Assembly: GCA_001778985.1 (NCBI GenBank)
Contig: MFIU01000001.1
Location: 126,001-190,000, forward strand
Length of the DNA stretch: 64,000 nt
From: Candidatus Giovannonibacteria bacterium RIFOXYD1_FULL_48_21
Lineage (GTDB): Bacteria; Patescibacteriota; Minisyncoccia; JACPKW01; UBA11713
Reading direction: 5' to 3'
Shown here: positions 6,626 to 53,276 of the stretch, one piece after another
Layout: each line of letters opens with the position of its first letter
Numbering within the stretch: position 1 is the stretch's first letter
The notes under the pieces: model-generated
Database searches by the model: none
Told to the model about the DNA's origin: nothing
Seen by the model: the letters and a program-made list of their open reading frames with translations, nothing else
Made by a program: the position numbers and the translations under genes

Positions 6626-6697
6626 GTCCCCATAGCTTAACGGATAAAGTACAGCCCTCCGAAGGCTGGGATCGAGGTTCAATTCCTCGTGGGGACG
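6626..6697 (+). tRNA. tRNA-Arg (anticodon CCG)
   Basis: manual cloverleaf: acceptor GTCCCCA/TGGGGAC, D-stem GCTT/AAGT, anticodon stem CAGCC/GGCTG with loop CTCCGAA, T-arm CGAGG-TTCAATT-CCTCG; 72 nt. Confidence 0.7.
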
Positions 6698-6698
6698 C

Positions 6699-6769
6699 CG
6701 GGCTGTAGTATAGCGGTAGTACACAAGGCTGGGGGTCTTGTAGCCGGGGTCCGACTCCCCGCAGCCCGA
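6699..6769 (+). tRNA. tRNA-Pro (anticodon GGG)
   Basis: acceptor CGGGCTG/CAGCCCG, anticodon stem CAAGG/TCTTG with loop CTGGGGG (G37), T-arm CGGGG-TCCGACT-CCCCG; begins 1 nt after tRNA-Arg. Confidence 0.65.
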
Positions 6770-6781
6770 CACTTCGACTTT

Positions 6782-9801: not shown

Positions 9802-10542
9802 ATGAAAGATTTCGGTCTTCTTAAGAATCAAGCTTTAAATCTAAGAAAAAAAGGGTTAAGTTATAGTGAAATCCGTAGTAAGATTAAAGTTTCAAAAAGC
9901 ACTTTAAGCATGTGGCTAAAGGGCGTGAAGCTGAAACCTGAACACCGAGCGAGATTATATACTAAGCAAATTCAAATACTTTCACGCGGCCCACAAAGCC
10001 AAAAGGAAAGGAGGGCGAGAGAAATTAAAGAAATTGTAAAAGAAGCAAGCAATGAGATTAAACTTCCCCTCTCGTCCGAAGCCCACCGTCTTATTGGGGT
10101 GGGGTTATACTGGGCGGAAGGATCGAAAGGCAAAATGTTTCAAATAACGAATTCTGACCCGTATTTAATTCTTTTCATGGTGCGGTGGATAGAAAAGATT
10201 TTTAGTATTTCTGTAGAAACTTTAAGAGCACGGCTGAATATTTACCCCCAGCAGGGCGATCTGAAAATTAAGAAATTCTGGTCGAATCTTACAGGGATTC
10301 CGTTGAAAAATTTTAAAAAAAGTTATATAAAGCCGCTTAGTACAGGATATAAGAAGAATAATCTTTATTATGGGACAATTAGGATCGAAGTTCCTAAAAG
10401 TGCCAACTTTGTTTGTAAAACGTTCGGATGGGTTCAAGGACTATTGGCGGATATTAAGCCGCAAGTTGATTTTGTTCAAAAGAAATGGCGTCATCTTTCA
10501 AAAGTGCCCCGGCCTGTGAATTTAAATCCCCCCATAGCTTAA
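9802..10542 (+). CDS. LAGLIDADG-like homing-endonuclease-fold protein with N-terminal HTH
   Basis: LIGVGLYWAEGSKG fits the single LAGLIDADG motif; N-terminus LRKKGLSYSEIRSKIKVSKSTLSMWLKG is HTH-like; start chosen at the second Met (ORF opens at 9724); the stop codon lies inside tRNA-Lys. Confidence 0.4.
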   Translation: MKDFGLLKNQALNLRKKGLSYSEIRSKIKVSKSTLSMWLKGVKLKPEHRARLYTKQIQILSRGPQSQKERRAREIKEIVKEASNEIKLPLSSEAHRLIGVGLYWAEGSKGKMFQITNSDPYLILFMVRWIEKIFSISVETLRARLNIYPQQGDLKIKKFWSNLTGIPLKNFKKSYIKPLSTGYKKNNLYYGTIRIEVPKSANFVCKTFGWVQGLLADIKPQVDFVQKKWRHLSKVPRPVNLNPPIA

Positions 10543-10599
10543 CGGTAAAGCACCCGCCTCTTAAGCGGTGAGTTCTAGGTTCAAATCCTAGTGGGGGGA
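10528..10599 (+). tRNA. tRNA-Lys (anticodon CTT)
   Basis: acceptor CCCCCCA/TGGGGGG, D-stem GCTT/AAGC, anticodon loop CTCTTAA, T-arm CTAGG-TTCAAAT-CCTAG. Confidence 0.65.
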
Positions 10600-10633
10600 C
10601 AAACAACAACATTCGGTGTAAAATATATACACC

Positions 10634-47257: not shown

Positions 47258-47286
47258 GACTTTTTTATTGTTTGGATGTTTAATTG
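47258..47286 (+). promoter_or_regulatory. sigma70-like promoter upstream of the DGR target gene
   Basis: TTGACT - 17 nt - TTTAAT. Confidence 0.4.
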
Positions 47287-47407
47287 TCATTAAAGCTGGA
47301 AATGTAGGGCTGTCTTACATTTTCGAAGCTGTGGTCCTTTAACTCACCTCTGCGAAAAAGGCTATTCGCAGAAGGTTATGCTCCCAATGGGAAGCGAAGG
47401 AGGTTTT

Positions 47408-48058
47408 ATGAAGCCAAGTTTTGAACAAGGGATTTTGTTTGACCGGAATGTCGTAGAACTCAAGGCGAAGCTTGACCACGACGAAATGCAACGGCTGATT
47501 GAGGGCTTCAATCTTGTCTACGGCATCGCCAAAGGCAAGGTCAAGAGAACGGCGTCAGTATTATTAAATCTTGTCGTTTCCGGAGTGAGCATTACCGCAG
47601 CGCCCGCCGCGAAAACGGATGACTGTTTCAAGGTCGGGGACGGCGTCTTCGCTTATCGTGACCAGGATTTTGACCGCTGGTTGCCGGCAACGGTTCCGGC
47701 CGTGGGCGCGGGCAACGCCTCGACGTTTGAGTTTGAAATAGATCTCAACTTTCAGGAAATTGTAGAGGCGCACCTCGGCACCAAAGGCTCAATCGATGAG
47801 CTCAAAAAAGCGCTTATCGAGAATGGAAAGTGCTGGAGCCCGAAGCAGATAGATAAGCTCATCCGCAACTGCGAGAATGGCGACAATCCCTTAAAACTGC
47901 GGACTGACGGCTATGCCAATTTCTTCTTTATTGATATTGGCGGCGGCGTCTTCGCGGTCAGCGCCTATCGGTTCTCGGACGGCTGGGACATGTATGTCTA
48001 CGAGTTCGCGGACACCAATCGCTGGCGCGTCGAGGACCGCGTTTCTTTCCGCAACTGA
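47408..48058 (+). CDS. DGR target protein (variable C-terminus)
   Basis: strong SD GAAGGAGG 5 nt before ATG 47408; the last ~36 codons are the VR. Confidence 0.7.
   Translation: MKPSFEQGILFDRNVVELKAKLDHDEMQRLIEGFNLVYGIAKGKVKRTASVLLNLVVSGVSITAAPAAKTDDCFKVGDGVFAYRDQDFDRWLPATVPAVGAGNASTFEFEIDLNFQEIVEAHLGTKGSIDELKKALIENGKCWSPKQIDKLIRNCENGDNPLKLRTDGYANFFFIDIGGGVFAVSAYRFSDGWDMYVYEFADTNRWRVEDRVSFRN
47947..48055 (+). repeat. DGR variable repeat (VR)
   Basis: 109 bp, 89% identical to the TR; all 12 mismatches fall at positions where the TR has A. Confidence 0.8.
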
Positions 48059-48089
48059 TTCTTTGTTTCTTTGTCCCTCCGCATCCTAA

Positions 48090-48120
48090 ACGCCGGGTGT
48101 TCATCCTGAACATCCGGCGT
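48090..48120 (+). other. GC-rich hairpin immediately downstream of the VR (DGR target-recognition hairpin)
   Basis: ACGCCGGGTGTTCA-TCC-TGAACATCCGGCGT, 14-bp stem with 3-nt loop. Confidence 0.55.
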
Positions 48121-48326
48121 ATCTTTTTTAATGCTATACTCAATATGAATTTCGCTGGCATCCCCGGTCAAGGCTTGGGGTGGCGAAATTCCGGTCTGAA
48201 ATTTTTATTTCCGCCCGTCAAAAAACAAACAGTTGGTGCGGTCTGCTAGGAAACATTAAGGTTTCAAATACTATACAGCCCCGAGAGTATTCAAAGGGCA
48301 GTGGATTGGGCGGCAGGCGGCACGAA

Positions 48327-48435
48327 ACGTCTTCGCGGTCAACGCCAATCGGAACTCGGACGGCTGGAACATGAATGTCAACGAGTTCGCGAACACCAAT
48401 CGCTGGAACGTCGAGAACCGCGTTTCTTTCCGAAA
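48327..48435 (+). repeat. DGR template repeat (TR)
   Basis: nine AAC/AAT codons aligned to diversified VR codons. Confidence 0.8.
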
Positions 48436-48789
48436 CTATTTGTTTTCTCCCGCTGCGCTCTGGCGGGAGTTTTTGCTCCAACCGTAGAGCATTTTCCCGA
48501 CCTCATTCAGATGCTTGGAAAGCAGAATATACTTTTTATTGTTAAGCATCTTTATTTCCCAAGATACTTGCAGAAAGAATTTAAGAATGTCCAGTTTATT
48601 TTGGGCTTTATCCAAATACGGCAATTTCTCTTGTCTCGGCAGATAACTTGCTATGAATAACGATTCAAGGGTTTCCAGGAAGAGTAAATCTATTTTAGCG
48701 CCGAGCGTCAGGCGCAATGTTTTTGGGAGATTTTCAAAAACCCCATGCCACGATTTGTAGACCGCAACCAAGCGCCCGATGATGAGCAC
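48436..48789 (-). CDS. avd: Avd-like four-helix-bundle protein (accessory variability determinant)
   Basis: 117 aa; C-terminal LNEVGKMLYGWSK resembles the TIGR02436/bAvd EIGxxLxGW tail; GTG start; opposite strand to TR/RT. Confidence 0.55.
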   Translation of the reverse strand: MLIIGRLVAVYKSWHGVFENLPKTLRLTLGAKIDLLFLETLESLFIASYLPRQEKLPYLDKAQNKLDILKFFLQVSWEIKMLNNKKYILLSKHLNEVGKMLYGWSKNSRQSAAGENK

Positions 48790-48889
48790 GGTTCCGTAAG
48801 GGGGGGGGCTTAAAGGAAGAATTCAATTCGGACATAGTTTTGAAGATATCATTTCGGTTGAAAATCTCCTAGCGGCTTGGAAAGAATTT

Positions 48890-49777
48890 TTGAAAGGGAA
48901 ACGCAATAAACCTGATGTCCAAGAATTTTCGATACGGCTCATGGATAATATTCTAGCACTTTACCAAGAACTTGCCTCTAAAACTTACGAGCACGGCGGC
49001 TATAAATCCTTTCACATCTTTGACCCCAAGCCGAGGCATATCCACAAAGCCAGTGTTCGCGATAGATTATTACACCATGCCATTTACCGGAAGCTCTATA
49101 CGTTCTTTGACAGAACTTTCATTACCGATTCATTTTCCTGCCGCAAGAACAGAGGAACACATAAGGCACTAAACGGGTTTAAAGCGTTTGGGCAAAAAGT
49201 AAGTCGAAACAACACCAAAATCTGCTGGGTTTTGAAAGGCGACATCCGAAAGTTCTTTCAGAACATTGACCATGAAGTTTTAATGAATACTTTATCGCAG
49301 CATATCCCTGATAAAAATATTCTCTGGCTTCTAAAAAAAGTTATTGAGAGTTTTTCTCCCGGTCTACCCCTCGGCAACCTAACTTCCCAGCTTTTCGTTA
49401 ATATCTATATGAACGAATTTGACCAATTTGTGAAACATAAATTGAAAGTAAAATATTATATTCGCTACGCGGACGACTTCGTGATTTTGTCGGAAGATAA
49501 AAGCGAACTCCATAATCTAATTCCAAAAATCAGAGATTTTTTTCAAGACACCCTGCGTCTCGAACTCCATCCCGACAAAGTTTTTATCAAAACTCTTGCT
49601 TCCGGCGTTGACTTTTTGGGCTGGGTTCATTTTCCGGACAATAGGGTATTGCGAACGGCGACCAAAAGGCGGATGATTAAAAGGATACAAGATAATCTAA
49701 ATCCCCAGACCTTGAATTCATACCTCGGTTTTCTGAAACACGGAAATACATATAAACTTCGGAAAGAAATTTACTGA
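48890..49777 (+). CDS. DGR-type reverse transcriptase
   Basis: YADD box (IRYADDFVIL) and the DGR-specific PLGNLTSQ motif; conserved N-terminal residues (FEDIISVENLLAAWKEF) lie in frame upstream of the called TTG start, back to ~48800. Confidence 0.8.
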   Translation: MKGKRNKPDVQEFSIRLMDNILALYQELASKTYEHGGYKSFHIFDPKPRHIHKASVRDRLLHHAIYRKLYTFFDRTFITDSFSCRKNRGTHKALNGFKAFGQKVSRNNTKICWVLKGDIRKFFQNIDHEVLMNTLSQHIPDKNILWLLKKVIESFSPGLPLGNLTSQLFVNIYMNEFDQFVKHKLKVKYYIRYADDFVILSEDKSELHNLIPKIRDFFQDTLRLELHPDKVFIKTLASGVDFLGWVHFPDNRVLRTATKRRMIKRIQDNLNPQTLNSYLGFLKHGNTYKLRKEIY

Positions 49778-52975: not shown

Positions 52976-53006
52976 ATAGTTTAATTATAGAGTAATTGAA
53001 TTTTGT

Positions 53007-53276
53007 TGTGGAGATGGCGGGAATTGAACCCGCGTCAGAAGAAATTTTGAACCGCGGTTGACAGGCTTAAAACTTTTGAAGGTTTTTCTCGCTTATAACA
53101 CCCGCGACCCTCTAGCGAGAATCAAGGACGGATGCTTACACAGACTTAATTAAGCAACTGCGTAAGAAGGTTGGAATAAGTTTGCACTTACTACATTGAG
53201 AGATTTTTAAGAGCTAACTCTCGTCCTCTGCCTGAGCGCCTGCTCAAACTTTTCCTCCTCGAGGCCGATCATCCCC
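53007..53276 (-). ncRNA. ssrA: tmRNA (ssrA), about 270 nt
   Basis: 5' GGGGATG pairs with 3' CATCTCC-A (G3:U wobble), T-arm GCGGG-TTCAATT-CCCGC, tag reading frame GCA AAC TTA TTC CAA CCT TCT TAC GCA GTT GCT TAA (ANLFQPSYAVA*) at 53150-53185. Confidence 0.65.

Follow-up and report, generated by a model that had tools for sequence, protein, structure and literature searches.

A diversity-generating retroelement in a Candidatus Giovannonibacteria chromosome and the sequence elements conserved around its template repeat

Components of the cassette and their assignment

The DNA analysed, a 64-kb stretch from Candidatus Giovannonibacteria bacterium RIFOXYD1_FULL_48_21 (contig MFIU01000001.1, positions 126,001 to 190,000; the whole stretch is called the window below, and all coordinates are counted from its first letter), harbours a diversity-generating retroelement (DGR), in which a target gene ending in a variable repeat (VR) is followed by a template repeat (TR), an oppositely encoded avd gene and a reverse transcriptase (RT) gene. 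The genes and repeats are laid out as follows.

47408–48058, plus strand: target gene, 216 aa, with an N-terminal helical hairpin and a conserved ~165-aa domain, the last 37 codons being VR
47945–48056, plus strand: VR, 112 nt, with 14 differences from TR, all at TR adenines
48326–48437, plus strand: TR, beginning 2 nt past the 3′ strand of a helix named P1 and abutting the avd stop codon with its 3′ end
48436–48789, minus strand: avd, 117 aa, matching PF22296 (bAvd) and phrog_3206, encoded oppositely to TR and RT
48809–49777, plus strand: RT, with its frame open from a G run and homology to the Bordetella phage enzyme bRT from 48839; matching RVT_1 and phrog_1423

When the two repeats were compared at an offset of 381 nt, VR 47947–48056 and TR 48328–48437 formed a core repeat of 110 nt with 12 mismatches, at every one of which the TR base is A (hypergeometric P = 8.6e-9, with 28 A in the 110-nt TR). 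The repeat takes in one extra codon at its 5′ side, GGC in VR (47945–47) versus AAC in TR (48326–28), and over the full 112 nt all 14 mismatches lie at TR adenines (P = 6e-10, with 30 A in the 112-nt TR) and none at any other base. Nine of the mismatches fall on codon position 1, four on position 2 and one on position 3, and ten AAC/AAT codons are recoded between TR and VR, while the homology stops at 48056/48437. The last mismatch, C at 48052 in VR versus A at 48433 in TR, is synonymous (CGC versus CGA), and the same C/A difference was found in many relatives and in a decayed sister cassette (L010: GCA_044231025.1, JAZHBT011386521.1, 1–1800; here 962 versus 1348); because it is synonymous and recurrent, it is more likely a fixed difference marking the VR/TR boundary, of the initiation of mutagenic homing (IMH/IMH*) type, than a mutagenesis event. 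Scanning of both strands of the window with TR, its A positions being ignored, yielded no second VR. Read from the two copies of the repeat, the differences show the last 37 target codons to have been rewritten from TR with randomisation at template adenines, and the 14 A-specific differences without any other make the past activity of the element clear. The original prediction had set VR at 47947–48055 and TR at 48327–48435 with 12 differences, all at A; these coordinates proved 1–2 nt off, but the restriction to adenines stood when mismatches were tabulated by TR base, and with it the proposed signature of adenine-directed mutagenesis.

The RT matched RVT_1 (5.6e-25) and phrog_1423 (6.7e-110), and the LGNLTSQ and YADD motifs predicted for it are present, with the catalytic motifs intact. 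Among solved structures, bRT (PDB 8ub7) was its best match by 27 orders of magnitude (E = 8.7e-45, over bRT residues 9–286 and aligned from FEDIISVENLL); group II intron RTs reached 3.5e-18 at best and retron-type RTs 9e-16. This sequence affinity, stronger to bRT than to either of the other two RT classes, supports assignment of the RT to the DGR clade. The Avd-like open reading frame (ORF) that had been noticed downstream of the target was confirmed as avd, its product scoring 45.5 bits against Pfam PF22296 (cutoff 40) and 9e-16 against phrog_3206, annotated as ‘Avd protein of DGR’. The TR/VR pattern, the PF22296 match and the bRT match together confirmed the complete DGR originally predicted, and the presence of all its components, i.e. 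the TR/VR pair, target, Avd and RT, is supported.

The target gene starts at ATG 47408, preceded by AAGGAGG at 47397–47403, and VR runs up to the stop codon of its ORF. The protein had no credible match in Pfam, NCBIfam, PHROGs or PDB (phmmer and profile). A word-indexed search returned 22 relatives, every named one of which is a member of the candidate phyla radiation (CPR); an exhaustive profile search recovered 2443 cluster representatives at E<=1e-3 and 995 at <=1e-10, corresponding to a family of ~2,400 clusters (50% identity); among ten sampled members no Pfam domain was detected in it, save for a neighbouring SpoU fusion. One relative from the profile search, P0023 (926 aa), consists of five tandem copies of the ~165-aa domain. 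The family domain ends in VFAVxAxRxSxGWxVxVxxFAxxxRWxVExRVSFRN, the x columns of which coincide exactly with the AAC/AAT codons of TR; since the columns that vary across the family are those very codons, this argues, as evidence independent of the rest, for the domain as a habitual DGR substrate.

As to the fold of the target, an AlphaFold2 (AF2) model built from 11 sequences was poor (predicted local distance difference test, pLDDT, 65) and was set aside, and a second AF2 run gave a good model. A Foldseek search of the model against PDB produced no significant match and nothing at E<0.08, TvpA (Treponema denticola variable protein 1, PDB 2y3c) and the CLec/FGE-like variable proteins included, and no sequence relationship to these proteins was revealed by the PDB profile search or Pfam. 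The VR motif is presumably also unlike the CLec1–3 logos. No N-terminal hydrophobic segment was found in the target, in which the only moderately hydrophobic stretch (residues 50–68, KD19 = 1.65) is confidently modelled as a β-strand. The diversified surface sits on a divergent, probably C-type-lectin-like domain of a small protein without an N-terminal signal peptide. The earlier remark on a 216-aa target with no obvious signal peptide thus holds, but the feature is not unusual, as CPR DGR targets without membrane or known domains are documented in the literature.

CPR DGRs were reportedly first surveyed by Paul et al. in 2017. Searching one genome per species with the RT gave >561 matches, the best 80 of which (L014–L093) were analysed; nearly all of these carry labels of CPR/Patescibacteria lineages, at 61–75% identity. 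Among them, avd is located directly upstream of RT on the opposite strand in all 78 loci whose DNA extends upstream of RT, and in each of the 65 loci with enough DNA for the comparison, TR abuts the avd 3′-end and a VR is found 360–680 nt upstream on the RT strand, with mismatches overwhelmingly at TR adenines. The arrangement TR-(avd)-RT is known as architecture B3 and occurs in 90% of CPR DGRs (Wu et al. 2018, PMC5758913), which have been placed in DGR clade 2 (Roux et al. 2021, PMC8144416). The opposite strand of avd, pointed out originally as a peculiarity of the cassette, is thus the published norm and is shared by 78/78 relatives. We conclude with high confidence that the locus is a chromosomal DGR of the CPR/Patescibacteria type, with architecture B3, in Candidatus Giovannonibacteria.

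The cassette has PolX and a major facilitator superfamily (MFS) transporter upstream, and NUDIX, MGMT-like, ZIP, L20/L35/IF3, SmpB and transfer-messenger RNA (tmRNA) genes downstream, a chromosomal setting; no phage genes are present around it. Ordinary housekeeping context is also represented by the tmRNA itself (53006–53276, minus strand, tag ANLFQPSYAVA) and by three tRNAs, Arg-CCG, Pro-GGG and Lys-CTT (6626–6770, 10528–10600).

Conserved elements flanking the repeats

Besides the genes and the two repeats, the cassette contains the following elements.

48059–48073, plus strand: two TTCTTTG-type repeats, weakly representing the tandem CTTGG/CTTTG repeat found throughout the clade
48090–48129, plus strand: GC-rich hairpin and T run (48090–48120, 14 pairs, 8 of them G-C, with a 3-nt loop, then ATCTTTTTT)
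48236–48323, plus strand: structured RNA domain adjoining the 5′ side of TR, recognised by covariation and a covariance-model match; P1 pairs 48236–48247 with 48312–48323, P2 48250–54 with 48261–65, and P3 48278–82 plus 48285–86 with 48291–92 plus 48295–99
48447–48474, plus strand: hairpin and T5 from a terminator scan, the stem (48447–48469) standing 10 nt past TR
48745–48813, plus strand: short ORF from ATG 48745 through the G run to TAA 48811, one base out of the RT frame
48800–48808, plus strand: G9 homopolymer separating the starts of avd and RT, the sole such simple-sequence repeat in the 64-kb window

In the spacer between VR and TR, the window and L010 are 87% identical, whereas their target proteins share only ~60% identity. 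Alignment of the 130 nt preceding TR from 37 loci revealed the 12-bp P1 helix enclosing two hairpins, with CGAAUAnGAUACA and GGUGG as invariant single strands, and RNAalifold on this MAFFT alignment identified compensatory changes in 19 of the 23 pairs. A covariance model derived from the 37-locus alignment gave 71 matches in 809 kb, one per DGR cassette, all of them on the RT strand just before TR and >30 in loci outside the model-building set; the window yielded a single match (48206–48338, 104 bits), and none was obtained in the loci with orphan targets described below. In the 71-sequence alignment, which is fitted to the covariance model, 96.7% of cells pair versus 76% after shuffling and ~40% after sliding, and double changes occur in 20 of the 23 pairs, with which the independent MAFFT/RNAalifold result agrees. 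No Rfam family matched the domain, and the RT-motif families of Rfam (including RT-10, if in Rfam) were not among the matches in 47900–48900. The domain may be the part of the template RNA that serves its handling by RT and Avd.

On the other side of TR, a GC stem followed by GTTTTGTTTT is found at the same place, 10–20 nt past TR, in ~42 of 44 related loci, with stem sequences that differ from locus to locus, and this hairpin overlaps the last avd codons on the other strand. In the RNA of Bordetella phage BPP-1, an Avd-binding stem-loop lies directly 3′ of TR and is followed by the priming adenosine; the next strand pairs just 5′ of TR in the ‘cPRT Stop’ duplex, and past it come a short stem-loop, a long single strand and a bRT-binding stem-loop (bioRxiv 10.1101/2023.10.23.563531). 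In the CPR cassettes, the post-TR hairpin might serve the TR RNA as an intrinsic terminator, correspond to the Avd-binding stem-loop, or do both. As a terminator-like hairpin after TR implies that the TR RNA ends before RT, the RT would need a promoter of its own inside or beyond avd; a sigma-70 promoter scan revealed none that is convincing for the TR RNA, avd or RT.

We propose that the template RNA would be a self-contained transcript composed of the 5′ domain P1–P3 (48236–48323), TR and the 3′ hairpin with its U run. The RT–Avd complex would bind this RNA, copy TR from its 3′-end and misincorporate opposite A, until being halted by the 12-bp P1 helix, which ends 2 nt before TR in the window, i.e. 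at the position of the BPP-1 ‘cPRT Stop’ duplex. The cDNA would then replace VR, with the information boundary placed between 48035 and 48052. The order of the parts (first P1 strand, hairpin, single strand, hairpin, second P1 strand, TR, hairpin) would read like a circular permutation of the BPP-1 RNA, so that the CPR RNA might be regarded as the BPP-1 parts cut after the primer region and rejoined, with P1 as the stop duplex. As a candidate for priming, snap-back of the U tail on the TR motif ‘GAAAC’ was considered and dropped, the motif being absent in many relatives.

Downstream of VR, the window has two copies of CTTTG (48061–48073). Across 44 related loci, the 60 nt past VR are enriched 14.6-fold in CTTGG and 20-fold in CTTAG, and in CCTTG as well (15–20-fold across the three motifs), with a median of 3 motif copies versus 0.33 expected and a spacing peak of 7–8 nt. 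These tandem repeats precede the terminator hairpin and may act as a signal at the homing site. Their sense is shared by the invariant ACUUGGUG located at the 5′ border of the RNA domain. The GC-rich hairpin itself begins 34 nt past VR; as the T run ATCTTTTTT comes next, it looks like the intrinsic terminator of the target gene, and it is possibly also a DGR target-site hairpin. In L010, the corresponding place is taken by a hairpin that differs in sequence. The 14-bp hairpin that had been described as following VR therefore exists with its 14 pairs, but 34 nt away and in terminator-like form.

The repeat tract before RT and the weighing of alternatives

The gap between avd and RT contains a simple-sequence repeat in 74 of 78 related loci, namely G>=8 in 65, (GT)>=6 in five, (GA)>=6 in three and (CT)>=6 in one, while comparable repeats numbered 7 in the other 700 kb. 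The G tracts of the relatives range from G8 to G14, and on the RT strand the gap homopolymers are all G, never C. In most relatives, an ATG start of RT (M-K-I-Q-L) is situated 13–20 nt past the tract; in the window and ~13 others, no ATG/GTG/TTG is found past it and the RT frame is open through the tract. An in-frame TAA is located at 48797, just before the G run, and the first canonical RT start is TTG 48890, initiation at which would delete the helix aligned with bRT residues 9–25. Gene callers put the RT start at 48890 or later, losing ~20 conserved residues. A tract of G8 or G11 would fuse the short ORF of ATG 48745 to the RT frame. An upstream start is in frame through the tract in L016, L038 and L075 (ATG), L019, L029, L051 and L060 (TTG) and L087 (GTG), and out of frame in L064 and, by one base, in L014, L023, L034 and the window. 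Judged on reading frames, this pattern would be compatible with phase switching by the poly-G tract, the window being in the OFF register, and just as compatible with an RT that starts from a non-canonical codon, e.g. ATT 48821. Within the species, the tract is G9 in ~26 assemblies, save for one G-to-T in L002, with no length polymorphism.

Population variation was compared in assemblies only. Across the ~26 assemblies the population is nearly clonal (0–1 single-nucleotide polymorphism (SNP) in 3.3 kb), and an invariant VR therefore argues only weakly against activity. A further 20 contigs were found by the exact target protein, which conditions them on an identical VR and makes them silent on VR diversity; the G tract is G9 in all of them, with 0–1 SNP per 3.3 kb. 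Scans of metagenome contigs with the G-run flanks and with a 31-mer of the RNA domain gave no match, indicating a collection without this species. In the assembly L002, of the same species, the G-to-T change stands at 48805 and a 5-nt deletion breaks RT (49131–49135); L006/L106 have a scaffold gap of Ns inside TR (48342–48373), and several contigs end at 48820–48843, just past the G run. All these may be assembly effects of repeats and homopolymers or real variants.

Among the relatives, decay is exemplified by L010, in which TR and VR differ at 18 positions (14 at A and 4 elsewhere), avd is reduced to its last ~10 codons and RT to two short fragments, with a score of 107 bits retained by the RNA domain. 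L007/L008, L009, L011, L012 and L013 carry homologous targets whose C-termini are VR-like, but the flanking DNA examined contained neither TR, avd nor RT, nor the RNA domain; such targets are either orphaned or depend in trans on a DGR located elsewhere in their genome.

Several observations weigh against the reading of the locus set out above. For the RT, no ATG, GTG or TTG start exists ahead of the conserved N-terminal helix. No VR variant was detected, the 90%-identity cluster of the target comprising three members that differ only in the called start, on 46 contigs, and six contigs retrieved through Avd carrying an identical VR. Avd scored 68.6 bits against NCBIfam NF033474, below the cutoff of 80. 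The proposed RNA mechanism is drawn from position and topology only, with no priming site identified, and a pairing of an upstream A tract with a downstream U tract, which fits L015, L017 and L040, does not fit L023, L029 and L034.

With these points in view, the cassette could be intact but silent here, the RT being untranslated or needing a change in the G9 length, with the poly-G as a phase-variation switch in its OFF state. This we consider rather unlikely. It agrees with the stretch from the stop at 48797 to TTG 48890 being free of canonical starts and with ATG 48745 lying one base out of frame, with the split of the same-sub-type relatives between in-frame and out-of-frame upstream starts, with the interchange of the G tract with (GT)n or (GA)n elsewhere and its G8 to G14 length range, and with the invariance of VR in all assemblies. 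However, the constancy of G9 in ~26 assemblies (but for the L002 substitution) is at odds with a switch, the near-clonal population makes the invariant consensus VR weak evidence, and in most relatives the run lies upstream of the ATG, where action by frameshift is impossible. Moreover, the window and L014 (75% identity) share a conserved, stop-free frame past the run, which is what its translation, e.g. from ATT 48821, would lead one to expect, and the upstream ORF is codon-aligned antisense to avd and could be open by chance.

A decaying relic, i.e. a former DGR being lost in the manner of L010, is highly improbable. Loss does occur in the lineage, as seen in L010 with its 4 non-A mismatches among 18, avd remnant and RT fragments, in the L007, L009, L011, L012 and L013 targets devoid of TR, avd or RT in the DNA examined, and in the L002 assembly with its 5-nt deletion inside RT; but the window itself has 0 non-A mismatches in 112 nt, avd and RT frames of full length with intact catalytic motifs, and an RNA domain scoring 104 bits. 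The chance that the locus is no DGR at all, with an RT from a defence system, retron or group II intron and a duplicated gene fragment as the 110-nt repeat, is negligible. The NCBIfam matches that would suggest it, to a group II intron RT/maturase (145 bits, cutoff 300), Drt and retron models, are all far below their cutoffs, and Rfam found no intron RNA domains or retron msr/msd. The bRT match, the Avd gene adjacent to RT and the mismatches confined to one base of one copy, which ordinary divergence cannot explain (P ~6e-10), already refute it. The CPR-type DGR of architecture B3 is therefore retained as our reading of the locus.

Significance and comparison with known systems

As a DGR, the locus is a typical member of a kind known to be abundant in CPR genomes, lies in a public Rifle aquifer genome out of the same dataset that was surveyed for CPR DGRs, and adds nothing new, and its conserved cis-elements are the part worth following. 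No description of the 5′ RNA domain, the post-TR hairpin, the avd–RT repeat or the post-VR repeats was found in the searchable literature, a scope outside which the Paul et al. 2017 survey and the Wu supplements lay. The locus offers a clean entry to the largest and least understood DGR clade, which is without an experimental system, and defines an RNA of ~270 nt (5′ domain, TR and 3′ hairpin) usable for in vitro reconstitution with a CPR RT–Avd. The candidate stop helix and the possible permuted Bordetella RNA architecture are testable, and the near-universal repeat tract may regulate the mutator. These elements touch on two open questions: the priming and delimitation of DGR cDNA synthesis in systems other than the phage model, and the means by which cells keep a hypermutation device in check. 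That CPR DGRs in general combine a stand-alone, circularly permuted TR RNA ending in a terminator-like hairpin with a hypermutable repeat gating RT by phase variation is speculative and, in our estimate, rather improbable; if the repeat-gating reading were true, phase variation would act as an on/off switch of targeted hypermutation itself. The target family, having no Pfam entry, would be a sensible addition to domain databases.

With the CPR DGRs of architecture B3 and clade 2, the cassette agrees in the order and strands of its genes, in having one adjacent target whose VR is C-terminal and which lacks a recognisable domain or membrane anchor, and in its chromosomal location in a groundwater CPR host. 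Nothing in its make-up sets it apart, except that its RT is of the minority sub-type without a canonical start past the G run.

With the BPP-1 DGR (mtd-avd-TR-brt), the prototype elucidated by experiment, it shares the adenine-specific transfer from TR to VR, an RT with [LIV]GxxxSQ and YxDD motifs and an Avd partner, as well as a stem-loop right after TR and a duplex abutting the TR 5′ edge, where cDNA synthesis would stop. It differs from BPP-1 in that the host is a cell rather than a phage, and the target a small soluble-looking protein rather than a tail fibre. Furthermore, the conserved structured RNA lies 5′ of TR here but 3′ in BPP-1, and the post-TR hairpin is followed here by a U run and is terminator-like. 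CPR DGR cassettes may carry conserved cis-elements that the BPP-1 prototype lacks.

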